From NCBI GenBank assembly GCA_017620205.1, contig JAFZQX010000019.1:18887-82886 (forward strand): 64,000 nucleotides of DNA, written 5' to 3'. A program made the translations under genes and the position numbers. Of this stretch, positions 1,304 through 50,494 are shown one piece after another (the first letter of the stretch is position 1; every line of letters begins with the position of its first letter). Source of the stretch: Clostridia bacterium. Lineage in GTDB: Bacteria > Bacillota > Clostridia > UMGS1883 > UMGS1540. The notes below the pieces were generated by a model. It worked only from the letters and a program-made list of their open reading frames with translations, was not told the origin of the DNA and did not search any database.

Positions 1304-2335
1304 CTAATCTTTCTTCTTGGTAATTACAAAATAGGTAACTGTAATGCACACTATAATAAAAGCTACCAACACCATAGCGCGAAGAGCGTCGCCGCCGATG
1401 AGAACAATGGCGGAAAGACCGAGTAAACTACTGATAAGATAGAGTATACCGACAGTTTGTTTCTGTGTGAGGCCCATATCTAAAAGCTTATGGTGCAGGT
1501 GACCCCGGTCGGCGCCCATAATGGGTTTGTGGTCTTTCATGCGGCGCAGCATTACAAAGCCTGTATCAAACAGCGGCAGACCCAAAACTATAAGCGGAAC
1601 AAAAAAGCTTATTACCGCGTACGCCTTGAATACGCCCATGATAGAAACACAAGATAAAATAAAGCCTAAAAACATGGCGCCTGTATCACCCATGAATATT
1701 TTTGCTGGGTTAAAATTATAAGGTAAAAAACCAAAACATGCGCCGGTCAGCGCAGCTGTTATAAGCGCTATGTTTTCTTCACTGGCAATAAGTGCAATAC
1801 AGAGCAGCGTCATCGAAGCTATTGAACTTACTCCTGCTGCCAAGCCGTCGAGACCGTCAATTAAGTTTACTGCGTTAGTAACCGCAACAACCCATATAAT
1901 GGTAATCGGAATCGAAAACAAGCCGAGTTCTAATGAGCCCTCTGACATGATAAACGTGGGCATGCTTATACGTTCGATTATAACACCGTGTAAAACCAAA
2001 ACCACTGCCGCAAGTATCTGACCTACCAGCTTTGTTACCGGGTGCAGAGGACGGATATCGTCAAATATACCTGTGATTATGATAATTAAAGCGCCGAATA
2101 TCATACCGCGAACGCCTAAATCAATCCTGCAGAGGCATAATATACTTACTACGAATCCGTAAAATATAGCGAGACCGCCGAGTAGCGGAGTTGGTTTTTT
2201 GTGAACGCGGCGTGCTTCTCCGGGTTTATCAATAGCACCGATTCTGAAAGCCAACGCTTTAACAAACGGGGTTGTTGCATAAGCAACGGCAAACGATATT
2301 ACAAATGACAGTGCAAATCCGAGAGACATAAGCAC
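1304..2335 (-). CDS. glycosyltransferase family 4, undecaprenyl-phosphate HexNAc-1-phosphate transferase (MraY/WecA/TagO family)
   Basis: Polytopic membrane protein of 343 aa with DGLDGLAAG and NFNPAKIFMGDTG motifs characteristic of the MraY/WecA superfamily. Confidence 0.75.
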   Translation of the reverse strand: MLMSLGFALSFVISFAVAYATTPFVKALAFRIGAIDKPGEARRVHKKPTPLLGGLAIFYGFVVSILCLCRIDLGVRGMIFGALIIIITGIFDDIRPLHPVTKLVGQILAAVVLVLHGVIIERISMPTFIMSEGSLELGLFSIPITIIWVVAVTNAVNLIDGLDGLAAGVSSIASMTLLCIALIASEENIALITAALTGACFGFLPYNFNPAKIFMGDTGAMFLGFILSCVSIMGVFKAYAVISFFVPLIVLGLPLFDTGFVMLRRMKDHKPIMGADRGHLHHKLLDMGLTQKQTVGILYLISSLLGLSAIVLIGGDALRAMVLVAFIIVCITVTYFVITKKKD

Positions 2336-2364
2336 TTACCAAGCCTTTCTGCCGGTTTGAAGAA

Positions 2365-3357
2365 TTAAACTCTGTCAACAAAACCGACTTTTCTGTGTAC
2401 TTTCGAAAGAGTGCGCCGAGCAATAGAAGAAGCGCGTTCGGCACCTTCTTTATATATCTTTTCGATATAATCCTTGTTTTCAATAAGTTCGTTATACTTA
2501 TCTCGAATAGGTTTAAGCGTTTCAATAATTATTTCTGAAACTCCCGCTTTGAAGTCTCCGTAACCTTTGCCTTCAAACTCTTTTGCGGCATCTTCCGGGG
2601 TTATTCCCGTCATGGCTCCGTAAATGGAGAGCAGGTTATTTATCCCGTCTTTACCTTCTTTGTATTCAATAACACCGTCTGAATCTGTAACGGCTCTTTT
2701 GATTTTTCTTGTTATTGTGTCCGGGTCATCAAGAATCCATATATAACCGTTTGGGTTAGGATCACTCTTGCTCATTTTGGATGTAGGATCCTGCAAACTC
2801 ATAACACGTGCTCCTACAGGGGGGATATATGCTTCCGGAACGGTGAAAACGTCGCCATATACTTTGTTAAAGCGATCGGCTATATCTCTTGAAAGTTCCA
2901 AGTGTTGTTTCTGGTCTACACCGACGGGAACAAGGTCTGTTTTATAAAGCAAAATATCTGCGGCCATTAAAACCGGATAAGTAAACAGGCCGGCATTTAT
3001 GTTTTCAGCGTGTTTTTGGGATTTGTCTTTAAACTGAGTCATACGGGAAAGTTCACCCATATATGTATAACAGTTTAATATCCAAGAAAGCTCAGCGTGC
3101 TGCGGAACATGTGACTGAAAAAACATAATTGAGTTTTCAGGGTCAATTCCGCATGCAATATATTGGCACAAAAACTGCATACATCTTTTGCGGAGCTCTT
3201 TTGGATCCTGGCGAACGGTTATTGAATGCATGTCAACAACAGAGAATATGCAGTCATATTCCTTTTGAAGTTCAATCCAGTTTTTAACCGCGCCTATATA
3301 ATTACCAAGCGTTATACAGCCTGTCGGCTGGATACCGCTGAATACTCTTTTTCTCAT
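2365..3357 (-). CDS. trpS: tryptophan--tRNA ligase
   Basis: Class I aaRS motifs: HIGH-like TGCITLGNY at the N-terminus and KMSKS present. Length is 330 aa. Confidence 0.9.
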   Translation of the reverse strand: MRKRVFSGIQPTGCITLGNYIGAVKNWIELQKEYDCIFSVVDMHSITVRQDPKELRKRCMQFLCQYIACGIDPENSIMFFQSHVPQHAELSWILNCYTYMGELSRMTQFKDKSQKHAENINAGLFTYPVLMAADILLYKTDLVPVGVDQKQHLELSRDIADRFNKVYGDVFTVPEAYIPPVGARVMSLQDPTSKMSKSDPNPNGYIWILDDPDTITRKIKRAVTDSDGVIEYKEGKDGINNLLSIYGAMTGITPEDAAKEFEGKGYGDFKAGVSEIIIETLKPIRDKYNELIENKDYIEKIYKEGAERASSIARRTLSKVHRKVGFVDRV

Positions 3358-3373
3358 TAATCTTTAAACCTCA

Positions 3374-4561
3374 TCAATCTTTTTCGGGGTCATAATTCTT
3401 GATTACATCTGCTAAAATGCGGATTCCGGTTTCTATCTTGTCATCTGCGGGAAGTGAATAATTAAGACGGAAATCGGGGCATGGGGCATCCATATCAATG
3501 GCGCATGTAAAGCCGGGAACAAATGCAACCTTTTCTTTTATTGACTTTGCAAGCAGCTTTTTAGTATCAAAATACTCGGGTAATGCACACCAAAGGAAAA
3601 TGCCGCCCTCGGGTCTTGTGAAGTTCGCGTAATCGGGGAAGTATTTATCCATTGCAGAGAGCATCAGAGAACATTTTTTGCCATAGAAATTCCTTGCTTT
3701 TTCTATGTGCTCATCAAGAGAATATCTGTTAAAGAATTCAGCGGCAATCATCTGCGTTAATACAGTTGTATGAACGTCAGAAACCTGTTTGCAGATTACC
3801 ATTTTTTCACGAATGTCATTTCTTGCAACAGCCCAGCCGAGGCGCATGCCGGCAGAGAGTACCTTTGAAAACGAGCCTGCATATATTACTCTGCCCGTAT
3901 CGTCCATTGATTTAATTGAAGGCATCGTTTCGCCTTTAAATCTGAGCTCAAAATAAGGGTTATCTTCCAAAACATAAAAATCATACTTTTCGGCAAGTTC
4001 AAGGATTCTCTTCCTTGTTGCCATATCCATTGTAATGCCGGAAGGGTTTTGGAAAGTTGTGATTGTATATAAAAGTTTGATTTTAGTTCTTTTAAGGATA
4101 TCTTCGAGCATATCGGTGTCAAGACCGGTGTCTTTTACAGGCACACCGATAAGCTTTGCACCATATGAGCGCAGAGAATTGAGACCGCCTATAAAACTTG
4201 GTTGTTCAACCACAACAACGTCGCCTTCGTTTAAAAGTGATTTAAAGCAAAGATCGAGTGCTTGCTGGCCGCCGGATGTAACCAAAACATCGTTATCCGG
4301 TTTTAAATTGCCGAATTTTCTCATCCTTTCGCGGATTTGTTCAGCAAGCGGTGCATATCCTTCGGTAACGCCGTATTGAAGTGCGACCGCAGGATTATTC
4401 TTTATAATCTCTTCAGATATTTCAGCAAGCTCAACAGAAGGAAAAAGCTCGGGAGAGGGGGCGCCGCCGGCGAATGAAATCATTTCCGGATCACCTAAAA
4501 GCTTGAACATTTCTCTGATTGCCGAACCCTGAAGACTTGATACTCTTTTTGCAAATTCCAT
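3374..4561 (-). CDS. PLP-dependent aminotransferase (class I/II fold)
   Basis: 395 aa with the aminotransferase fold signature (SFSKVLSAGMRLGW, lysine-containing PLP motif). It lies immediately upstream of trpS in the same orientation. Confidence 0.8.
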   Translation of the reverse strand: MEFAKRVSSLQGSAIREMFKLLGDPEMISFAGGAPSPELFPSVELAEISEEIIKNNPAVALQYGVTEGYAPLAEQIRERMRKFGNLKPDNDVLVTSGGQQALDLCFKSLLNEGDVVVVEQPSFIGGLNSLRSYGAKLIGVPVKDTGLDTDMLEDILKRTKIKLLYTITTFQNPSGITMDMATRKRILELAEKYDFYVLEDNPYFELRFKGETMPSIKSMDDTGRVIYAGSFSKVLSAGMRLGWAVARNDIREKMVICKQVSDVHTTVLTQMIAAEFFNRYSLDEHIEKARNFYGKKCSLMLSAMDKYFPDYANFTRPEGGIFLWCALPEYFDTKKLLAKSIKEKVAFVPGFTCAIDMDAPCPDFRLNYSLPADDKIETGIRILADVIKNYDPEKD

Positions 4562-21774: not shown

Positions 21775-22359
21775 ATGGATTATAAGGAAAGGGTATATAG
21801 TGTGCTCGTTGTGTCTTCCTCGGAGAAATTCAACGCCACTTTAAAAGAATTGCTGTCCTCTGAGCGATATTCCCCTGTTAAATTCAAAACCGATATAAAC
21901 TCTGCCAACAGGGAACTGCTCGAAAGAAAGTATGATTTTGTAATTATAAATTCACCGATCCATAATGATGACGGAATAAGACTTGCAATTGAGGTAACAG
22001 CTACTAAAAGCACTGCTGTTCTTGTTATGGTTAAAGACGAGTTCTATTTAACTACTTATGAAAGAGTGTCGCCGTTTGGAATTTTCGCACTTCCGAAACC
22101 AACTACAAAGCAGATTCTAATGCTCTCGTTTGACTTTATGGCAAGTATGAACGAGAGGCTTTCTAAGCTTGAAAAAAAGACTACGTCTCTTGAAGACAGG
22201 ATGCATGAAATAAGGATTATAAACCGCGCCAAGTGGATTTTGATAGAAAAGTTTAAGATGAGCGAGGAAGAGGCACACAAGGTAATTGAAAAGCGCGCCA
22301 TGAACGCGAGCATCACAAAACGCGAAGTCGCGGAAGATATTATAAATACAAACAGTTAA
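21775..22359 (+). CDS. ANTAR-domain response regulator (AmiR/NasR-like RNA-binding antiterminator)
   Basis: 194 aa with an N-terminal receiver-like domain and a C-terminal ANTAR coiled-coil/RNA-binding region (EDRMHEIRIINRAKWILIEKFKMSEEEAHKVIEKRAMN). Confidence 0.8.
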   Translation: MDYKERVYSVLVVSSSEKFNATLKELLSSERYSPVKFKTDINSANRELLERKYDFVIINSPIHNDDGIRLAIEVTATKSTAVLVMVKDEFYLTTYERVSPFGIFALPKPTTKQILMLSFDFMASMNERLSKLEKKTTSLEDRMHEIRIINRAKWILIEKFKMSEEEAHKVIEKRAMNASITKREVAEDIINTNS

Positions 22360-22365
22360 AAAGGA

Positions 22366-22396
22366 CTGCGATTTAATAAATCACAGTCCTTTTTTA
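22366..22396 (+). terminator. rho-independent terminator after ANTAR gene
   Basis: GGACTG...CAGTCC hairpin followed by a T6 run. Confidence 0.65.
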
Positions 22397-22699
22397 TATT
22401 TCAATTTTGATGTAAACCCGTCAAAAAAACTCCGGAGAACTCGAAGCTTTCCGTAAGCTATTGAAACCACCACAGAAGAAACCGCAGAAACAGAAGAAAA
22501 GAAGGGCGAGGAAAATCCAGCCGAGTATGCGGAAGAAACGGACAGCGGGGGTAAAGAAACACCAAGCGTATCTTTTAAGAACGATGAAATATCGTCAATC
22601 TATGAGAACATAAAGAATGACATTGATGCGCTTGATACCAAGAGCCTTAAGAAAATAGACAACGAAATAAGCGAACTTAAGACACAGACTCACGAAGGC

Positions 22700-25099
22700 G
22701 TGGACACGCTCATCTCAGGCGCAATTGACCGAGCAAAGGGAATACAGAGGTCTTATGAATTCATGCGAGACAATGCGGAAGAAACGGATAGTGGGGGCAG
22801 GGCGCTTTTTGTTGGAATAAGGTCTAACACGGCAAGCGAAAGCCTTTATGCAGAAGCTTTGAAAATGGAAGCTGACGGCAAAAGCAAAGAAGATATACTT
22901 AAAGAGACAGGTTGGCTTAAAGGTGCTGACGGTAAGTGGCGTTTTGAGATAAACGATAAAGATTTGCAGTTTAATAGTCACGGCTTCTTTTCAAATCCCG
23001 ATGTACAAAGATACAAAGCACTTGAACTTAAATTTATCAATGGCGAGATAACAGAGAGCGAAGCAACAGAATTAAAACAACTACAAAAGAGCTTAGAGGG
23101 AGTTAAGAAAAACCCTAAAACGCTTGGCGACTATGTTAAACACGATGCCTTGTTTGAAGCGTATCCGTTTTTGCGCGATCTGGCTTTAAGTTTTTCTGAC
23201 AGCATGGCTTTTGGGAATCGCGGCTCTTTTAACGGGGAAGAAATAACCCTTAACAGTAAATTGCTAAAAGACGAGGCGAGGCTTAAAAGAACTCTCATTC
23301 ATGAAATACAGCACGCAATTCAAGATTATGAAGGCTTTGCGGGCGGCTCAAATCCTGATTACTTCACCAAAAATATAGCTTTAACTGAAAATGAAATCAG
23401 AAATGCAGAAGAAGCGGCGGGCAATTTGAAAAGCGCAGAGGACCGGCTGCTTGAGTATAAAGATGAAAACGGTGACGATGTTTATCTTGAACTTGCAGAA
23501 GAATATGAGAAGTTGTCAAATTTATTGTACGGAGACGAACAGATAGACGATGAAGCGATTGAAAGAAGGTTGGAAGAAATTGAACAAGCCTTTGCTGAAG
23601 TGGGCGCAGATGACTTACTGTTTGAATACCTTTCGTCTAAACAAACATTGGAAAGAATTAAGAATAGGCGCAAAAACAAATTCGGCTCATTTGAGATGTA
23701 TCACAATACCGCAGGCGAGGAAGAAGCACGCGACAGCGCAAACCGCATCGACATGACAGACGAAGAACGCCGCGAAACGTTCCCCGAAAGCGCAAAGGAA
23801 AATCCTGATAGGGTGTTTGCGGGTGCGGACGAAAACGTTTTAAGTTTGTCGGTTGACAATTCGATATTAGACGAATACAACATAAGCAAACTTAACGATT
23901 ATGTTCATGTGCAAAAGCAGGTTTTAGAAAAACTTAAAAGCAATGGCTTTTTCTCTGACAAGGGCGGGAAAAGTCTTACGGTTGTGAACGATGAAAGCGG
24001 TATGGTTGTGGAGATTGCCCCGAAAGGAATAAAAGAAACTTTTGGAAAGGGAAACCGGTTTGAAACGTTGCCGCGTGAAATTAAACTTGCAAAGTTATCG
24101 ACAATATACGACATACCAAACATAATAAAAGTCGGTAGACTCATTGAGGCTGATGTCAAAAACTATCATAACGAAAACAGCAGTTTGAGGTATGCGTATA
24201 TAGTAGGAGACGCTGAAATAAACGATGAATCAGCAATAATAAAAATAACAGTTAGGCAGTCACCGCAAAAAAATAAGTTTTGGATGCACCAAATTGACAT
24301 TGACACAAAAGAAAATATCGAAAGCAAGCCCACTGGCGCGAACTCTGAAAGAGCAAGCGCTAAAATGGGTTTAACTACTTTCGATATTGATGATAGTCTA
24401 TCACAATCAGAAGGCGATGTCAAGCCCAAGTTTTCTTTTGACTCCTCTGTTGAAGAAACAAAAGACCAAATCTACACCGACAACTTCAAAGAATGGTTTG
24501 GAGATTGGCAGAATGACCCCGAAAACGCAAGCAAGGTAGTTAATGAGGACGGTACGCCGAAGGTTGTGTATCACGGGACAGATAACAGCTTTACTGTATT
24601 TGATATTTCTTTAGCAGGACAAAACAGTTATAATTTTTACGGAGACGGATTTTATTTTTCTGACAAAAAGAAGGGTGCACGTAATTACGGGGATAATATC
24701 ATACCTGCATATTTAGACATTAAAAATCCGTATTATGCTACCGAAAAAGACGCGGGAAGAATAAACCCGAAAAAGCTAATTGAACAGAAATATGACGGTA
24801 TAATAATAAAAAGCCCTTCTGGGGAAAACTTCGTTGTATTCAATCCCACCCAAATCAAATCCGCAACAGACAACATAGGCACATTTGACAAATCAAATCC
24901 CGATATACGTTTCTCCTTCGATGACATGGACGATGACGAACTGTTTGAAATGTTTACTGACGATGTTCCCGTGCAAGACGAGGTTATAAAACGCGCAAAA
25001 GAGAACTTCAATATTGACAAGGCAAATAAGCTTGTGTCTAATATCATAATACACAAAAAACGGTTGCGGCAATTACCGCAACCGTTTTTAAATACTTGA
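22700..25099 (+). CDS. 5'-truncated fragment of a phage/conjugative-element 'polyvalent' protein; zincin-like HExxH metallopeptidase motif plus C-terminal H-Y-E-class ADP-ribosyltransferase-like domain
   Basis: The reading frame is open from 22457, directly after a TAA, with no ATG before the GTG at 22700. A zincin-like HExxH motif is present (HEIQHAIQ). The C-terminus carries VVYHGT, YNFYGDGFYF and GENFVVFN motifs resembling the diphtheria-toxin/PARP H-Y-E ADP-ribosyltransferase (ART) signature. The sequence is acidic and low-complexity, and a terminator hairpin is embedded in the last codons. Confidence 0.5.
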   Translation: MDTLISGAIDRAKGIQRSYEFMRDNAEETDSGGRALFVGIRSNTASESLYAEALKMEADGKSKEDILKETGWLKGADGKWRFEINDKDLQFNSHGFFSNPDVQRYKALELKFINGEITESEATELKQLQKSLEGVKKNPKTLGDYVKHDALFEAYPFLRDLALSFSDSMAFGNRGSFNGEEITLNSKLLKDEARLKRTLIHEIQHAIQDYEGFAGGSNPDYFTKNIALTENEIRNAEEAAGNLKSAEDRLLEYKDENGDDVYLELAEEYEKLSNLLYGDEQIDDEAIERRLEEIEQAFAEVGADDLLFEYLSSKQTLERIKNRRKNKFGSFEMYHNTAGEEEARDSANRIDMTDEERRETFPESAKENPDRVFAGADENVLSLSVDNSILDEYNISKLNDYVHVQKQVLEKLKSNGFFSDKGGKSLTVVNDESGMVVEIAPKGIKETFGKGNRFETLPREIKLAKLSTIYDIPNIIKVGRLIEADVKNYHNENSSLRYAYIVGDAEINDESAIIKITVRQSPQKNKFWMHQIDIDTKENIESKPTGANSERASAKMGLTTFDIDDSLSQSEGDVKPKFSFDSSVEETKDQIYTDNFKEWFGDWQNDPENASKVVNEDGTPKVVYHGTDNSFTVFDISLAGQNSYNFYGDGFYFSDKKKGARNYGDNIIPAYLDIKNPYYATEKDAGRINPKKLIEQKYDGIIIKSPSGENFVVFNPTQIKSATDNIGTFDKSNPDIRFSFDDMDDDELFEMFTDDVPVQDEVIKRAKENFNIDKANKLVSNIIIHKKRLRQLPQPFLNT

Positions 25100-26053
25100 T
25101 TAGTTACATTCTGCAACTAACGGACCTGCAAGTTCTTTAAGATAGAAGAGTTTGCCGGGAAGTGTGGGGATAAATGTTGATGTGATGTTCATATCGGGTC
25201 CGTAGTGGAGCGTAGTTAAGAAGCTCATGCCCTGCCAACCCATGCCGCGGCTGAGAGCGCCGTCTGCGCCGCCGATAGCGTAATCTGCCTGGAGGAAGAG
25301 GCCGGGGCCTATTGTGTTTGCTCTGCAGGGAACGAGAGTTGTGCGGCTCTTAAAGCTTGTTATAGCGTTCTGTTCGATTGTTAAGGGATGAAGCTTTGCG
25401 CCTATTCTGTAGCACTGCTGTTTCCATTCTTCAACGCTTGAGAATTCGTCAGCAAAGTGGGGTTCCCAGAAAGCGATGTGGCACATTCTGCCGATACCGT
25501 AAACGAGAACAAGCTTTGCGCCTTCTTCTTTGAGTTTCTTGATTTTGTCGGGATATGTCGGAAGATTGTCCTTTGCAGCGAAGTTTCTCTGGCTCTCGGG
25601 AACAGTCTTTTTGATTTTATTGAAGAAAGCTTCTTTCATGCTGTATTCAAACGAAGCTGTGTCTGTGTTGGGGAGAGTGTTTCCGTCGCCGTCAGCCCAT
25701 TCGTCCATATTGAACGTGTAAAGATGTGAGCAGTCAACATCCCATTCGTTTAAGAAGTAAGCTGCCCATTTGTACATACCCATAGGACCTACGGGCAAGA
25801 TCATAGCGAGCTTTTCGCCTCTGTCTCTTGCGAGCTTTATCTGGTTTGCGATTTCATGACCCATGTATGTATCGAACTCATAAATGTTTTCGCATTCGAT
25901 GGGGTTGAAGTCCTTGTTCCAGAAATCTTCTCTTGCTACGCCTTTTTCACAGCATTCGTCAATTTTTTTGAGATCCCAGCCCTTCGGATAAAAGTTTTCT
26001 AAAAGGCTGCCTTTCATTGTGCTTAAAAAATCCATAATTATATTCCTTTCCAC
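25100..26053 (-). CDS. NagB/glucosamine-6-phosphate deaminase family protein (long form)
   Basis: 317 aa with LYTFNMDEW and [13 protein letters not shown] motifs matching the NagB signature (TFNMDEY, G.G.DGHIAFNEP). Confidence 0.7.
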
Positions 26054-26081
26054 TCTTAATAGAGTTTAAATTATTTGTTCT

Positions 26082-26780
26082 CTAGGGTAATAATCTCTTT
26101 GTTATTGCTTTCGGCCATACAAGCTCCTGCGTAAATGCTTCGGCATAATCTACGCCGCACTGGAGACCGCGGAAACGTGAGCATGTGCGAACGAATTCCG
26201 CAAAATCAATATGGTCATGGTCACGCATCCATTTAAGTTGGCTTTCGTGGCACTCAAGCATTTCTATCTTGAGCTCGATTTCATCTGAAATATCAACAAA
26301 CTCGTTGGGAACAAAGTTAAGACCTGCGAGGTTGTCCATATAGTAAAGAGGTGTTATAGCAGCTTTTCCGCCTTTGCCGTACTGCGGAACGCTTGCTGCG
26401 AAGGAAGCGTCAAATACAAGTTTTGAAACCTCTCTGTGGTCGGGCATATAGTCTGTCGGGCCGTGTGTAATTATAAAATCGGGCTGAACTTTTCTTATAA
26501 GCTCAACAATCATATCTCTCTGCTTTATGTCGCAGCCGTTCGGGAGTAAGTCGCCGATATCAAGCGTTACAACCTCAATGCCTGCAAGAGAGCCTGCTTT
26601 TTTAGCCTCGGCAGCTCTCATCTTTCTGAGCTCACCGGGCTTTATGATTTCATGACCCATGTTACCGTTTGCAACATGGCATACTGTTACTTTGTCACCG
26701 CGTTTAACACATTTAGCAAGAGTTCCGCAACAGGAAATCTCAATGTCATCGGGATGACAGCCAATAGCTAATACATTCAT
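26082..26780 (-). CDS. PIG-L/LmbE family N-acetylglucosaminyl deacetylase
   Basis: 232 aa with an N-terminal AIGCHPDDIE zinc-binding motif of the LmbE family. Confidence 0.8.
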   Translation of the reverse strand: MNVLAIGCHPDDIEISCCGTLAKCVKRGDKVTVCHVANGNMGHEIIKPGELRKMRAAEAKKAGSLAGIEVVTLDIGDLLPNGCDIKQRDMIVELIRKVQPDFIITHGPTDYMPDHREVSKLVFDASFAASVPQYGKGGKAAITPLYYMDNLAGLNFVPNEFVDISDEIELKIEMLECHESQLKWMRDHDHIDFAEFVRTCSRFRGLQCGVDYAEAFTQELVWPKAITKRLLP

Positions 26781-26897
26781 CTTTTTTCCTCCTTTTAATG
26801 TTGACCGTATGTGTCTTATATGTTATAATAAATAACAAAAAATGTATTTATCAATTAATCCTAATAATTTATCATTTTTTCCAAAGGGTGTTTTTTA

Positions 26898-27785
26898 ATG
26901 AAAGAATTTGAAATGCTTCCGGTTGAGCAGGAAATCAAAATTGACGGATTTAACAGTATATATTATTTTGAGTTTGGAAAGGACTTTACTCATCCGCCCG
27001 AAGTTCATGATTTTTGGGAGTTTGCTTATGTTGACAGCGGTGAGATAATTGCCGTAACAGACGGACTGGGTCAAACGCTGAAGCAAGGTCAGATAATGTT
27101 TCACAGACCTATGGAAGTGCACGCGCATATTTCAAATAAAGTTACGCCCAACAACATGCTTGTTGTAACGTTTACGTGCAGCAGTCCTGCCATGAACTTT
27201 TTTGACAAACGCGTTTTTGAACTTGGCAAAAACTCCAAAATGCTTCTCACGCTGTTTGCTGAAGAAGCAAGGCACATATTTGGGAGCATTTCGGGCGATT
27301 ATAACAATAAAAACCCTCTCGGAACAAAACATGTATCTCCTGAATCGCTTCAGCTGCTCCAGTGTTATTTAACCGAATTTTTAATAAAGCTCAAAAGACA
27401 GGATGAAAACTCCGGCAGCAGAATAAAGAAAAACGAAATTTCAAGAGATATAGCGCATTCGTCCATAACGGAGCTGATTATTGCTTATCTCGAAGAAAAC
27501 GTATACCAAAACATTACTACGCAGGACTTGTGTAAAAAGTTTTATATGAGTAAATCACAGCTGTATCAGTTGTTTTCGGATTATTCGGGAGACAGTCCCA
27601 TACACTATCATCTGAAACTTAAAATGGCTGAGGCTAAAAAGCTTTTGCGCGATAATAAAATGACAGTAAGTGATGTGGCCGACATACTGGGGTATACATC
27701 AATACATAATTTTTCAAGAGCTTTTAAAAATGCCGCGGGACTGTCGCCGGCAAAATATAAAAATAAGATTTTAAGCGGGGAATAA
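26898..27785 (+). CDS. AraC family transcriptional regulator (cupin sensor + AraC HTH)
   Basis: 295 aa with a C-terminal AraC-type dual HTH (ILGYTSIHNFSRAFK). It is divergent from the deacetylase/deaminase pair. Confidence 0.85.
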   Translation: MKEFEMLPVEQEIKIDGFNSIYYFEFGKDFTHPPEVHDFWEFAYVDSGEIIAVTDGLGQTLKQGQIMFHRPMEVHAHISNKVTPNNMLVVTFTCSSPAMNFFDKRVFELGKNSKMLLTLFAEEARHIFGSISGDYNNKNPLGTKHVSPESLQLLQCYLTEFLIKLKRQDENSGSRIKKNEISRDIAHSSITELIIAYLEENVYQNITTQDLCKKFYMSKSQLYQLFSDYSGDSPIHYHLKLKMAEAKKLLRDNKMTVSDVADILGYTSIHNFSRAFKNAAGLSPAKYKNKILSGE

Positions 27786-44829: not shown

Positions 44830-44903
44830 GCGGGTGTAGTTCAGTGGTAGAACATCAGCCTTCCAAGCTGATTGTGTGGGTTCGATTCCCATCACCCGCT
44901 CCA
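44830..44903 (+). tRNA. tRNA-Gly (anticodon UCC)
   Basis: 74-nt cloverleaf with anticodon loop cUUCCAAg and encoded CCA. Confidence 0.9.
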
Positions 44904-44906
44904 TAT

Positions 44907-44983
44907 GCGCCTGTAGCTCAGCAGGATAGAGCAACTGCCTTCTAAGCAGTGGGCCAGGAGTTCGAGTCTCTTCAGGCGCGCCA
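44907..44983 (+). tRNA. tRNA-Arg (anticodon UCU)
   Basis: 77-nt cloverleaf with anticodon stem ACTGC/GCAGT, loop CTTCTAA and encoded CCA. Confidence 0.85.
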
Positions 44984-44987
44984 ACAT

Positions 44988-45065
44988 GGTGGGTATAGCT
45001 CAGTTGGTTAGAGCGCTGGTTTGTGGCACCAGAGGTCGTCGGTTCGACCCCGACTACCCACCCCA
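44988..45065 (+). tRNA. tRNA-His (anticodon GUG)
   Basis: 78 nt including the His-specific G-1. It is nearly colinear with E. coli tRNA-His (GGTGG.TATAGCTCAGTTGGT.AGAGC), ends in CCA and carries anticodon GTG. Confidence 0.9.
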
Positions 45066-45100
45066 ACTTCTATTTCTGGGGTGTGCCGTTTAAGTGACGA

Positions 45101-45175
45101 TGGGCTGTAGCCAAGCGGTAAGGCACCAGACTTTGACTCTGGCATTCGTAGGTTCGAATCCTGCCAGCCCAGCCA
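45101..45175 (+). tRNA. tRNA-Gln (anticodon UUG)
   Basis: 75 nt with a U1-A72 acceptor pair, anticodon loop cUUUGAc and encoded CCA. Confidence 0.85.
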
Positions 45176-45195
45176 GATTTTATTTAACTTAATAT

Positions 45196-45271
45196 GACTC
45201 ATTAGCTCAGTTGGCAGAGCACTTGACTTTTAATCAAGGTGTCCGGAGTTCGAATCTCCGATGGGTCACCA
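45196..45271 (+). tRNA. tRNA-Lys (anticodon UUU)
   Basis: 76 nt with anticodon loop cUUUUAAu, T-arm GGAGTTCGAATCTCC and encoded CCA. Confidence 0.9.
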
Positions 45272-47278: not shown

Positions 47279-47325
47279 CATAAGTGGGACAAATGTACCA
47301 CTTAGGAATCGAAGGGTGTGTTTTT

Positions 47326-47922
47326 ATGCGAACTAAAAATCCGGAATACTTTGAAAAGATTTTAAACTGCATAGATAAATACAAAGAGGAGGCGGGCGCG
47401 TGTCCGACTGTGCGTGAGATAGCAGAAAAAACGGGTATTACAAAAACAACCGTTTCGCGTTATATTATGGATATGCGCGAGAGAAATATTATAGATTACA
47501 GCGGGCACAGGAATATAACAACCAAAAGAGACAGGGGCGAAACGGTAAAAGTGCCTCTGCTCGGTGCCGTATCGTGCGGCGTTCCGAAATACGCCGAGGA
47601 AAACATTGAGGAATATATAAAGCTTCCCGTGTCTCTTTTCGGCAAGGGAGAATATTTTCTTTTAAGGGCAAACGGGGATTCTATGATTGACGCCGGTATA
47701 GACGACGGTGATTTGGTTCTCCTGCGCGCGCAGAATACTGCGGAGACAGGGCAAATAGTTTCCGCGCTTATAGACGATGAAGCAACGCTTAAAAGGTTTT
47801 ATCCCGAACCGCAAAAGGGAAGAATAAAACTTCATCCCGAAAACAGCGCTCTTGAAGATATATATACGGACAAATGCGCAATACAGGGCGTTGCAGTTAA
47901 AGTTATAAAGGACTTGGTGTAA
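47326..47922 (+). CDS. lexA: LexA repressor (S24 peptidase)
   Basis: N-terminal winged HTH and C-terminal S24 domain with Ser (GDSM) and Lys (TLKRF). The sequence is close to Bacillus LexA across the cleavage and catalytic region. The start is chosen at the ATG after a GAAGGGTG RBS. Confidence 0.85.
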   Translation: MRTKNPEYFEKILNCIDKYKEEAGACPTVREIAEKTGITKTTVSRYIMDMRERNIIDYSGHRNITTKRDRGETVKVPLLGAVSCGVPKYAEENIEEYIKLPVSLFGKGEYFLLRANGDSMIDAGIDDGDLVLLRAQNTAETGQIVSALIDDEATLKRFYPEPQKGRIKLHPENSALEDIYTDKCAIQGVAVKVIKDLV

Positions 47923-47926
47923 AGAT

Positions 47927-48211
47927 ATGAAAAGCGAATATATAAGAGTGCCGCTTGAGGTCTATGTGCTTTGTGAGAGCGACGGCTCTTTCAGCCCCAA
48001 AAAACTTTTATATCACGATAAATCTTTCGAAATCACAAAAACGCTCTCTGTGCGCCCGAAATGCCCTAAAGAGGTCGGATGTATAGCGCCGCTTGAATAT
48101 ACCGTTTTAATAGACAATGAAGAGCGCAAAATCTACTACGAGCACGAAACGAATACATGGTTTTCCGTAAAGGAGATAAAAAATGAAGGAGCGAGCAATT
48201 CTGCACAGTGA
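47927..48211 (+). CDS. hypothetical small protein between lexA and Y-family polymerase (position analogous to YolD-like accessory proteins)
   Basis: 94-aa ORF, tightly packed and overlapping the polymerase start by 29 nt. No recognisable motif. Confidence 0.45.
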   Translation: MKSEYIRVPLEVYVLCESDGSFSPKKLLYHDKSFEITKTLSVRPKCPKEVGCIAPLEYTVLIDNEERKIYYEHETNTWFSVKEIKNEGASNSAQ

Positions 48212-49415
48212 CGCGAACAGCTTTTACGCGTCCGTTGAAACGGTTTTAAACCCCGCGCTTCGCGGGAAGGCTTTAGCTGTCTGCGGAAACAGGGAAGACA
48301 GGCACGGCATTGTGCTTGCAAAAAGCGAAAAAGCGAAAGCGGCGGGCGTTAAAACGGGAATGACCATATGGGAGGCGGAAAAGCTGTGCCCGGATCTTTT
48401 GGTGGCGCCGCCGCAGTATGAATATTATTTAAAGTTTTCAAAGCTTTTGTTCCAAATATACAGCCGCCATACAGACCTTATAGAGCCTTTTGGCATGGAC
48501 GAGTGCTGGCTTGACGTTACAAATTCGGCAAGGCCGCCTATGGAGACAGCGGAAGATATACGGTGTGCCGTTCGCGACGAACTCGGCATAACGGTAAGCA
48601 TAGGCGTATCGTTTAATAAAGTTTTTGCAAAGCTTGGCAGCGACATGAAAAAGCCCGATGCGATAACGGAAATAACAAGAGAAAATTTTAAAGAAAAGGT
48701 ATGGCCTCTGCCGTGCTCCGACCTTATCTATTGCGGCAGGGCTACTACGGCGCACCTAAAAAAACTTAATGTTAAAACAATAGGCGACATTGCCGCGTAT
48801 CCGCAGGAGTATTTAAAAAAGAAGCTTGGAAAAAGCGGAGCTATGCTTTGGGACTTTGCAAACGGACTTGATACATCAAGAGTTTCGCACATGGATTATA
48901 AAGTTCCGGCAAAATCTCTCGGTCACGGAATAACGTGCGTATCGGATATTGAAAATACGGAAGATGCGGAAAAGGTTATATACGCGCTTTCACAGGATAT
49001 AGGCTATAAACTGCGGCTTATGGAGCTTAAAGCTTGCGGTGTGCATCTTTTTGTCAGAGACAACAAGCTTTTGACGGTAGGCTGGCAGGCACCGCTTGAA
49101 GTACCGAGTTCGGATGAGAGTATCATAGCAGAAAAAGCGTTTGAAATTTTAAAGGAAAACTATACATGGGAAAAGCCCATACGCGCACTGACTGTTACAT
49201 CCATAGGGCTTGTAACCAAGAGCTTTCCGGAGCAGATAAATGTGTTTTTTGATAATGAAAAATCCGATAAAAGAGAACGTCTTTGCAAAAGCATAGACAG
49301 CATTAAAGAGAAATTTGGCAAAAAAACAATATTTCCGGCGGTAGTGCTGAATGAGAGTAAAATGCCGTCCCATGCGGGAAAAGAGATCATTATGCCAAAC
49401 CAAATGTACCGTTGA
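48183..49415 (+). CDS. Y-family translesion DNA polymerase (DinB/UmuC-like)
   Basis: N-terminal ILHSDANSFYASVE (matches the Y-family catalytic motif of DinB/UmuC polymerases), palm/finger motifs and a little-finger domain. An AAGGAG RBS precedes it. Confidence 0.85.
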   Translation: MKERAILHSDANSFYASVETVLNPALRGKALAVCGNREDRHGIVLAKSEKAKAAGVKTGMTIWEAEKLCPDLLVAPPQYEYYLKFSKLLFQIYSRHTDLIEPFGMDECWLDVTNSARPPMETAEDIRCAVRDELGITVSIGVSFNKVFAKLGSDMKKPDAITEITRENFKEKVWPLPCSDLIYCGRATTAHLKKLNVKTIGDIAAYPQEYLKKKLGKSGAMLWDFANGLDTSRVSHMDYKVPAKSLGHGITCVSDIENTEDAEKVIYALSQDIGYKLRLMELKACGVHLFVRDNKLLTVGWQAPLEVPSSDESIIAEKAFEILKENYTWEKPIRALTVTSIGLVTKSFPEQINVFFDNEKSDKRERLCKSIDSIKEKFGKKTIFPAVVLNESKMPSHAGKEIIMPNQMYR

Positions 49416-49456
49416 CAAGCTTAAAAACATATGTTATTCTTGAAATAAGAGGTGAT

Positions 49457-50494
49457 ATGATGCCGTTTAATATTATACGTGACGATATAACAAGACTTGA
49501 TATGGACGCCATAGTAAACGCCGCAAACAGCAGGCTGGCGTATGGCGGCGGCGTTTGCGGTGCGATATTTTCGGCTGCGGGCGCAGCTGAACTCCAGGCG
49601 GAGTGCGATAAAATAGGATATTGCGAAACGGGCGGTGCGGTTATTACAAATGGTTATAATCTTAAAGCAAAATATATAATACACACCGTAGGACCTATAT
49701 ACGGCGAAAACCCAAAAGAAGAGGAGAAACAGCTTTATTCATGCTACAAAAACTCGTTGGAGCTTGCAGCCGGGCATAAGCTTGAATCTATCGCTTTTCC
49801 GCTGATTTCGTCAGGCATATACGGTTATCCGAAAGCAGAAGCATTAAAAATAGCTACAAAAGCAATTAAAGATTTTCTTGCGGAAAATGATATGGACGTG
49901 TATCTTGTTGTTTATGACAAGGCCTCGTTTCATATAAGCGAAAAGCTTTTTGACAGCGTAAAAAGCTATATTGACGATAAATTGATAAAGCCGGACAGCA
50001 GGCGGTGCTTGTGCGATGAAGGGGTTTCTGTGCCGTTGCCGTGTTTGGCAGACAAAGAATATGATTACATACCCGAAGGCTCAACGTTACAAGGCGCACC
50101 TTCTGCTAAAATACAGTTTGAGAAAAAAGAATCACTTGACGCTCTTTTAAATAAAAAAACGGAAACGTTTTCGGAAATGCTTCTGCGTCTTATAGACGAG
50201 AGAGGAATGTCGGATGTTGAGGTTTACAAAAGAGCAAACATAGACAGAAAGCTTTTTTCGAAGATGAGAAAAAAAGACTATATGCCGAAAAAAACTACAG
50301 TTATGGCGCTTGTGATTTCGCTGAAGCTTGGCAAAAAAGAAGCTGAAATGCTTTTAAACCGTGCGGGTTTTGCCTTTTCCGAAAGCAGCAAGTTCGATAT
50401 TATAATAGAATATTTTATAGAAAACGGAATATATGATATATATGAAATAAACGAAGCGCTGTTTGCGTTTGAAGAAAAGCTTTTGGGCGCATAG
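49457..50494 (+). CDS. macro-domain protein (ADP-ribose/O-acetyl-ADP-ribose hydrolase-like) fused to C-terminal XRE-type HTH-like domain
   Basis: N-terminal macro motifs (DAIVNAANSRLAYGGGVCGAIF, HTVGP, AFPLISSGIYGYP). The C-terminal ~120 aa resemble an HTH_3 domain (FSEMLLRLIDERGMSDVEVYKRANIDRKLFSKM). Confidence 0.7.
   Translation: MMPFNIIRDDITRLDMDAIVNAANSRLAYGGGVCGAIFSAAGAAELQAECDKIGYCETGGAVITNGYNLKAKYIIHTVGPIYGENPKEEEKQLYSCYKNSLELAAGHKLESIAFPLISSGIYGYPKAEALKIATKAIKDFLAENDMDVYLVVYDKASFHISEKLFDSVKSYIDDKLIKPDSRRCLCDEGVSVPLPCLADKEYDYIPEGSTLQGAPSAKIQFEKKESLDALLNKKTETFSEMLLRLIDERGMSDVEVYKRANIDRKLFSKMRKKDYMPKKTTVMALVISLKLGKKEAEMLLNRAGFAFSESSKFDIIIEYFIENGIYDIYEINEALFAFEEKLLGA

Follow-up and report, generated by a model that had tools for sequence, protein, structure and literature searches.

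A stretch of 64,000 nucleotides (nt) from a Clostridia bacterium (GenBank assembly GCA_017620205.1, contig JAFZQX010000019.1; hereafter the window) was analyzed around an open reading frame (ORF) whose product resembles the polyvalent proteins of phages and conjugative elements (Iyer, Burroughs, Anand, de Souza and Aravind 2017, J Bacteriol; PMC5512222). The segment from ~22417 to ~25050 is probably a stranded fragment of a giant phage-type polyvalent gene. The remainder of that gene and its source element appear to have been lost, and the surviving piece is a probable relic. An earlier inspection of the nucleotide sequence without database searches (the sequence-only reading) had described the ORF as the 3' remnant of a much larger gene for a polyvalent protein with zincin-like and ADP-ribosyltransferase (ART)-like domains.

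Domain content of the protein

The plus-strand ORF spans 22457-25099 (880 codons) and ends with the TGA at 25097-25099. Three Pfam matches over the curated cut-offs were obtained for its translation (LPD23, LPD3 and ART-PolyVal), and four modules follow one another in the single frame in the order LPD23, zincin-like metallopeptidase (HEIQH), LPD3 and ART. The modules and the terminal segment are as follows, with amino acids (aa) numbered from the first codon of the frame:

22808-22975, plus strand, aa 118-173: LPD23 domain (PF18838), core GWLKGADGKWRFEIND; Pfam E 2.5e-16, 59.6 bits against a cut-off of 27
23021-23734, plus strand: putative zincin-like metallopeptidase module with HEIQH, Glu292 of the motif EGF, a variable helical insert and NTAGEEEARD
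23960-24277, plus strand, aa 502-607: LPD3 domain (PF18798); Pfam E 1.5e-8, 35.2 bits against a cut-off of 27
24542-24886, plus strand, aa 696-810: ART-PolyVal domain (PF18760); E 5.9e-23, 82.6 bits against a cut-off of 31.2
24896-25051, plus strand: linker NPDIRFSF and a 45-aa acidic or helical tail, the tail being without a significant match

The LPD3 match reached 39.4 bits (E 7.8e-10) when the excised segment was searched alone, and the ART-PolyVal match spans the whole profile (positions 1-140 of 140). On these matches the protein is assigned to the known polyvalent class, in which several unrelated effector domains are combined in one polypeptide, as the sequence-only reading had proposed. 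Matches to PHROGs fall in internal parts of profiles that are 1,664-3,427 positions long, and a search of NCBIfam with the protein gave no match. The motifs quoted in the sequence-only reading were all located in the protein: HEIQHAIQ at aa 282-289 (from nt 23300), VVYHGT at aa 703-708, YNFYGDGFYF, which takes in aa 728-735, and GENFVVFN at aa 789-796.

A start-less leader points to 5' truncation

The frame opens directly after a TAA at 22454-22456, which lies 60 nt 3' of the terminator hairpin of the ANTAR gene, and a scan of the frame found no in-frame ATG, GTG or TTG in the first 81 codons. The early absence of an ATG was thereby confirmed, as was the standing of GTG 22700 (codon 82) as a start candidate, since it is the first codon of start type. 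The earliest in-frame ATG follows at 22763 (codon 103), and a start there would yield a product of 778 aa. The features of this region are:

22457-22699, plus strand: start-less, open, coding-like stretch of 81 codons (243 nt), with an acidic linker and a short helical segment
22527-22551, plus strand: first copy of a 25-nt direct repeat encoding the linker motif AEETDSGG (in-frame repeat family D1)
22700-25099, plus strand: ORF as annotated by gene callers, with a GTG start and 799 aa; the identical database protein P0001 is also called at 799 aa
22773-22797, plus strand: second copy of the AEETDSGG repeat, directly ahead of the LPD23 module

Several properties of the 243-nt leader are those of coding sequence. 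In composition-preserving simulations an open stretch of 81 codons occurs with P ~0.007-0.013, and the two other forward frames of the leader hold 3 and 10 stops. Codon position 1 is a purine in 84% of the leader codons, a periodicity shared by the remainder of the ORF. The two AEETDSGG copies are exactly 246 nt (82 codons) apart in the same frame, and they differ only at synonymous third positions (gac/gat and agc/agt within the 25 nt, ggt/ggc in the next codon), which is the signature of a translated linker and not of a 5' untranslated region (UTR). Because of the low chance of openness, the purine-first codons and the synonymous in-frame repeat, the leader looks like a remnant of upstream polyprotein sequence.

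The signals for initiation inside the frame are poorly placed. A Shine-Dalgarno (SD)-like GAAGG is only 1 nt away from GTG 22700, and AGAGG lies 12 nt upstream of ATG 22763, so that the spacing of the ribosome-binding site (RBS) is poor at both codons. Promoter-like sites showed no enrichment, with 9 found against 5.5 +/- 1.9 in shuffled sequences. From the coding-like start-less 243 nt, the poor RBS and the position of related modules inside frames of 1,700-4,300 aa (see below) we infer with good confidence, though short of proof, that the ORF is 5'-truncated, which is the best-supported reading and the one made from sequence alone. A frameshift joining an alternative frame (from 22419, RQKNSGELEAFRKLL) to the main frame was also considered and was dropped, as 14 open codons are no evidence.

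Relatives in phages and in gut Clostridia

Related modules on viral contigs are embedded in very long frames. Of 38 viral-contig loci from IMG/VR, 30 carry the module within an open frame that exceeds 1,700 aa and reaches up to 4,295 aa, and its distance from the N-terminus is mostly greater than 1,000 aa. Among 95 homologues from the databases, the LPD23 core is separated from the N-terminus by at least 93 residues and in most cases by 200-1,100. The same order from LPD23-metallopeptidase to ART (query aa 118-823) is found in gp57 of Bacillus phage vB_BspP_Dartukuta (QXN70910.1, 4,203 aa), where the match lies ~2,150 aa into the coding sequence, and in giant IMG/VR ORFs such as that of locus L093 (4,030 aa). 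Unlike in the window, the module is internal in these proteins, 1,100-2,150 aa from the N-terminus, and is accompanied by more modules on both sides.

The polyvalent proteins described by Iyer et al. (PMC5512222) share with the window protein the vocabulary of LPD23, LPD3, zincin-like metallopeptidase and ART-PolyVal domains, with an ART of the H-Y-D type. In both, unrelated effector modules are joined by short linkers of the form ...D[IV][RK][YF]S..., and the metallopeptidase forms the hub. The window fragment differs from these proteins in its length (~880 codons against 1,700-4,300 in viral relatives), in the lack of a start for 81 codons, in the absence of packaging or transfer genes nearby and in its solitary position among chromosomal housekeeping genes.

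The sequence-only reading had left the source as a phage or a conjugative element. Matches were found in 72 of 50,697 phage records and in 16 of 72,556 plasmid records, the plasmids being almost all non-mobilisable. The homologue P0004 adjoins phage scaffold and minor-capsid genes in a decayed prophage, and the best structural match is a phage ejection protein; the Cyanophage A4 pre-ejectosome tail protein (PDB 9k3a chain B) is counted among the closest known systems. Taken together, the record frequencies, the context of P0004 and the ejection-protein match make an origin from a phage more likely than one from a conjugative element, so that the phage half of the earlier proposal is favored and the conjugative half has become less likely.

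The closest homologue, P0002, is 41% identical and likewise lies among housekeeping genes. Among the closest homologues from metagenome-assembled genomes of gut Clostridia (P0004 at loci L130 and L131, P0002 at L132, and P0003-P0056), many give the impression of being truncated too: one sequence recurs at different lengths from 584 to 1,527 aa, and its N- or C-terminus is abrupt and junk-like. The first residues of P0004, for example, belong to a linker (...GSGDVKYS...) that has an internal position in P0042. Polyvalent ORFs that are stranded or broken seem common in gut Clostridia genomes. Upstream of the P0004 gene (L130:4150-9409), two ORFs of 1,159 and 598 aa without a Pfam match were observed beside a fragment of an ISL3 transposase; they might be a defence-like pair.

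Genomic context

All other genes examined in the window are housekeeping genes. They include the gerA operon, murC, spoVG, glmU, prs, glnA, the ANTAR regulator, a PIG-L deacetylase and an AraC regulator, as well as dnaD- and dnaC-like genes, a Mur ligase, M42 peptidases, aroA, lexA, dinB and alaS. The ORFs examined in the 64 kb included no phage or conjugation gene, and no integrase, portal or terminase was seen. The host genes on either side of the fragment converge; they are the glnA-associated ANTAR regulator and the gene at 25100-26035. The phage or conjugative gene neighborhood that is expected of polyvalent genes is present at the relatives and absent at the window locus, which suggests that the locus derives from such a gene and is not a working member in its context. 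The flanks of housekeeping genes only also indicate that the source element is gone, in support of the loss that had been proposed from sequence alone.

A scan of GTDB genomes with GlnA retrieved 79 loci, the best of which is 66% identical, and there is thus no close reference for this uncultured gut Clostridia lineage. The GlnA-ANTAR pair was present in 73 of the 79 fetched loci, and in none of these 73 was a polyvalent gene located downstream.

The right end of the fragment

Both ends of the segment are bordered by terminator hairpins and the left one also by a polymorphic junction that is discussed in the next section:

22358-22394, plus strand: terminator hairpin of the ANTAR gene (21775-22359), inverted repeat I1 with 18-nt arms, followed by a T-run
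22417-22456, plus strand: first 40 nt to the right of the polymorphic junction 22416/22417, ending with the TAA at 22454-22456
25056-25089, both strands: bidirectional intrinsic terminator hairpin (AAAAACGGTTGCGG...CCGCAACCGTTTTT), inverted repeat I3 with 17-nt arms and 94% complementarity, inside the plus-strand ORF

The ANTAR terminator, whose presence upstream of the ORF had been noted before, marks the left end of host sequence. At the right end, the last 15 residues of the ORF (HKKRLRQLPQPFLNT, nt 25052-25096) are encoded by the second hairpin, as the sequence-only reading had recognized; the hairpin is placed here at 25056-25089 instead of 25057-25090. The ORF ends directly next to the stop codon (25100-25102) of the minus-strand gene 25100-26035, which converges on it, and the hairpin begins 10 nt past this stop and is followed by a T-run on the minus strand. 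This position and the minus-strand T-run are most simply explained if the hairpin is the convergent host gene's own terminator, to which it probably belongs. Most simply, then, the plus-strand ORF leaves foreign DNA at ~25050 and ends by accident in host sequence. A resemblance by eye of the 3' tail to the start of a second LPD3 domain was not supported (BLASTP E 0.3-0.4, no Pfam match).

The left junction and its reproducibility in metagenomes

The junction between the ANTAR gene and the ORF is crossed by three independent metagenome assemblies (L002, L003 and L006) at 100% identity to the window, the right junction on the side of the convergent gene is also reproduced by several assemblies, and the same arrangement was detected in at least six metagenome samples. 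As the junctions recur in independent assemblies, the arrangement is real. An artefact of assembly or annotation, in which phage and host reads were merged into a chimera, might be suspected from the metagenomic source of the sequence and from the lack of a close reference organism (best GlnA identity 66%). Both junctions, however, were found at 100% identity in assemblies that differ in assembler and sample, including a 46-kb Logan contig, and GC content is continuous across the segment. An artefact is thus extremely improbable.

The left junction is not uniform in all samples. In contig L004, which comes from another sample, the sequence agrees fully with the window through 22416 and then continues with 33 unrelated nt (ATAAGTTTTATGAAAAAATACCTTATAGATAAA; L004:10643-10675), and contig L005 stops at 22417, with matching right-hand contigs that begin at 22439 and 22450, so that the assemblies of two samples are broken there. 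The divergence of L004 and the end of L005 identify 22416/22417 as a junction, 40 nt upstream of the first codon of the frame, and a second arrangement exists at this position in some populations. The 33-mer had no match in the window, JGI metagenome contigs (searched twice), GTDB genomes, IMG/VR or any of the fetched loci. It was ruled out as an empty site, because it is unlike the right flank.

This second arrangement raises the possibility that the fragment belongs to a larger or still mobile element and that other cells carry extra DNA at 22416/22417, such as the missing 5' part, an insertion sequence or another cassette. The exact departure of L004 at 22416 and the breaks of two assemblies between 22417 and 22439/22450 would fit such an element. 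Yet three assemblies span the junction exactly as in the window, the 33-mer is without a match in any searchable collection, and low-coverage samples break elsewhere too, for example at ~24690 and 24179. A longer protein with the same sequence is also absent from a database of 5.8 billion clusters, in which P0001 (799 aa) is the sole near-identical entry. A larger element is therefore considered very unlikely.

Decaying fragment or functional gene

A number of observations weigh against the interpretation as a truncated and stranded fragment. For the 81 leader codons no relative was detected in 1.84 billion representative proteins: an exhaustive HMMER search with the first 117 aa returned only the protein itself and a weak match to the repeat protein P0096, which has unrelated domains. 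In BLAST comparisons with the 95 homologues and with the viral loci, homology is first seen at aa 104-113, past both candidate starts. The GC content of the segment (0.38-0.43) does not differ from that of its flanks. No genome with an empty site was found, and among the 79 GlnA loci there is no synteny beyond GlnA-ANTAR, so that an insertion followed by decay is a proposed history. In some phage relatives (crAss-like) the ART is the terminal domain and is followed by a tail of ~45-52 aa, similar in length to the window tail but not in sequence, and the natural 3' end may therefore be nearly preserved. The 880-codon frame is intact, and the catalytic motifs HEIQH, EGF and NTAGEEEARD and the predicted ART residues H706, Y733 and D780 are present, which fits a functional gene equally well.

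One further point of this kind is provided by gp60 of Pseudomonas phage F116 (YP_164324.1, 1,649 aa), which is 31.8% identical to the window protein in a match that covers the LPD23-metallopeptidase and ART regions. Its LPD23 domain is ~40 aa from the natural start, as it would be in the window product if translation began at GTG 22700. A 799-aa product would consequently have a legitimate architecture, and the case for truncation rests on the coding character of the 243 nt and the poor RBS, not on architecture alone. F116 gp60 is unlike the window ORF in that it has an ATG with a good RBS (GGAAGG), has double the length, is part of a complete phage genome and lacks a start-less leader; it directly follows another polyvalent gene, gp59 (2,129 aa, 'methyltransferase'). 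The sequence-only reading had named two findings that would speak against it, namely full-length homologues starting at the equivalent of 22700 with a good RBS, and a lack of ART or zincin matches. The first of the two is matched by F116 gp60.

The ORF could be a domesticated, functional stand-alone gene that is translated from GTG 22700 or ATG 22763 and expressed by read-through or from a weak promoter, its product serving, for example, as a toxin, anti-phage or competition effector. Besides the intact frame and motifs, it is in favor of such a gene that every recognisable module lies 3' of both candidate starts, that the LPD23-first architecture is known from F116 gp60, that the arrangement is identical in at least six metagenome samples, that P0002 also resides among housekeeping genes, and that a promoter-like site scoring 9/12 was found at 22373-22400, overlapping the ANTAR terminator. 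The conservation among samples is uninformative, however, as they represent near-identical strains (99.9-100% identity) with 0-1 substitution in the ORF, and the only single-nucleotide polymorphism (24144 T>G, Ile>Ser) is non-synonymous. The SD-like sequences are poorly spaced (by 1 nt for the GTG and by 12 nt for the ATG), and an upstream stretch of 243 nt that is open, coding-like and start-less would be expected if an ORF had been cut, but not in a 5' UTR. Between the ANTAR gene and the ORF there is a strong terminator, the last 15 residues of the product derive from a terminator hairpin, and no antitoxin, immunity or macro-domain partner was found adjoining the ORF. A functional gene is thus judged unlikely.

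The lack of a start for 81 codons, of a convincing RBS or promoter and of a stop of its own before the terminator argues instead for a pseudogene that would not be expressed. The fragment is most likely a recent pseudogene that has not yet been degraded, and its intact frame would reflect its youth.

The metallopeptidase module

The HExxH motif of the module (HEIQH) is located at 23300-23314 (aa 282-286) and NTAGEEEARD at 23705-23734. In an alignment of 25 homologues, the two His and the Glu of HExxH, a Glu at +10 from the first His and the GE.E of NTAGEEEARD are all invariant. Pfam analysis of these 25 homologues detected DUF6782 in 19 (best E 6.7e-8), SprT-like in 8 and Peptidase_M78 in 2; DUF6782 is a putative metallopeptidase family. 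The metallopeptidase of the window protein itself scores below threshold, with 20.1 bits against 25.6 for SprT-like and 17.2 bits against 27 for DUF6782. A profile search of the PDB with the module matched IrrE (E 0.004) over the strand and HExxH region. The zincin-like domain recognized in the sequence-only reading is therefore supported by the invariant HExxH and downstream Glu and by the DUF6782 matches of homologues, and the module is a putative zincin-like metallopeptidase of the polyvalent type.

LPD23 and the HExxH module form one conserved unit of ~340 aa, for which a confident AlphaFold2 (AF2) model was obtained and no structural relative was found in the PDB. A local likeness to Bacillus subtilis YnzC/UPF0291 (PDB 3bhp) was observed in a helical hairpin at ~22990-23145 (module aa 75-126), between LPD23 and the HExxH core (profile search E 0.008; Foldseek probability 0.97, 38% identity over 40 residues).

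The ART domain and its predicted active site

The ARTs of polyvalent proteins carry a His in strand 1, a Tyr in strand 2 and an Asp in strand 5 (Tox-ART-HYD2 clade; PMC5512222). The predicted counterparts in the window protein are H706 (24572-24574), Y733 (24653-24655) and D780 (24794-24796). H706 (VVYHGT) is invariant in the homologue alignment, the column of Y733 (GFYF) contains Y, F or W, and the column of D780 (KYDG) contains D in 6 of the 9 aligned sequences, including the query, and E or N in others. D780 is located at the start of the penultimate strand; its assignment to strand 5 is taken from the alignment and the strand order of the AF2 model, which is of low confidence for the ART and is based on an alignment of only 9 sequences. 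A PDB profile search with this alignment gave no match.

The sequence-only reading had placed the catalytic acid of an H-Y-E triad in GENFVVFN. The column of that Glu is variable across the homologues (E, D, T, D, T, I, E, E, S), and the conserved acid is found in YDG one strand earlier. The comparison with the diphtheria toxin/PARP-like ARTs was thus probably right as to the fold class (H-Y-[EDQ]) and off by one strand as to the acid. The active site is predicted to be H-Y-D, with D780 as the acid.

Alt of phage T4, an ART that is packaged and injected and that modifies host RNA polymerase and other proteins, is a functional analogue and serves in the literature as the model for polyvalent ARTs (PMC5512222). 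It differs in belonging to the R-S-E and not the H-Y-D clade and in not being a polyvalent protein, and no sequence relationship to the window ART was detected.

Other observations in the window

To the right of the fragment, the region 25100-27785 comprises the convergent gene, which encodes 311 aa and has no Pfam match on record, a PIG-L/LmbE deacetylase (26082-26780) and a divergent AraC regulator (26898-27785). These genes are probably an amino-sugar utilisation cluster. A co-directional run on the plus strand at 47284-50494 consists of a lexA-like repressor (S24 and winged helix-turn-helix), a dinB-like Y-family polymerase and a 360-aa Macro-domain protein. The dinB-like and Macro-domain genes overlap by stop and start, and the run has the form of an SOS-type operon that includes a domain for the binding or removal of ADP-ribose; the ART remnant is 24 kb away, with no link shown. 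Five tRNA genes are clustered on the plus strand at 44830-45268, and an Rfam scan of the window returned only tRNAs, distant from the locus.

Proposed history and implications

The family literature (PMC5512222) suggests that the parent protein would have been packaged in the virion and injected together with the phage DNA, and that its zincin-like peptidase may have cut the polyprotein into separate effector modules. By analogy with T4 Alt, the H-Y-D ART would have ADP-ribosylated host proteins at an early stage of infection. Loss of the other parts of the gene and of the entire source element would then have left the fragment between the convergent host genes.

The class of proteins has been known since 2017 and is already represented in Pfam and in NCBI naming ('LPD23 domain-containing protein'), so that the fragment is one more decayed copy. 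It is nevertheless a clean example of how a piece of a giant phage effector gene can persist by itself in a chromosome while its ORF and catalytic motifs stay intact, and it illustrates that automatic annotation calls such a stranded piece a normal 799-aa gene. The assignment of catalytic residues in its ART has been corrected to H-Y-D, with D780. It is unlikely, but would be of greater consequence, that the fragment is alive and that the host keeps the compact LPD23-metallopeptidase-LPD3-ART product for use as a weapon or regulator encoded in its chromosome, perhaps transcribed by nitrogen-regulated read-through from glnA-ANTAR. If expressed, the ORF would be a candidate case of the domestication of an injected phage effector, and the stranded pieces in gut Clostridia (the P0002 and P0004 series) would then represent a recurrent route by which such effectors are domesticated.

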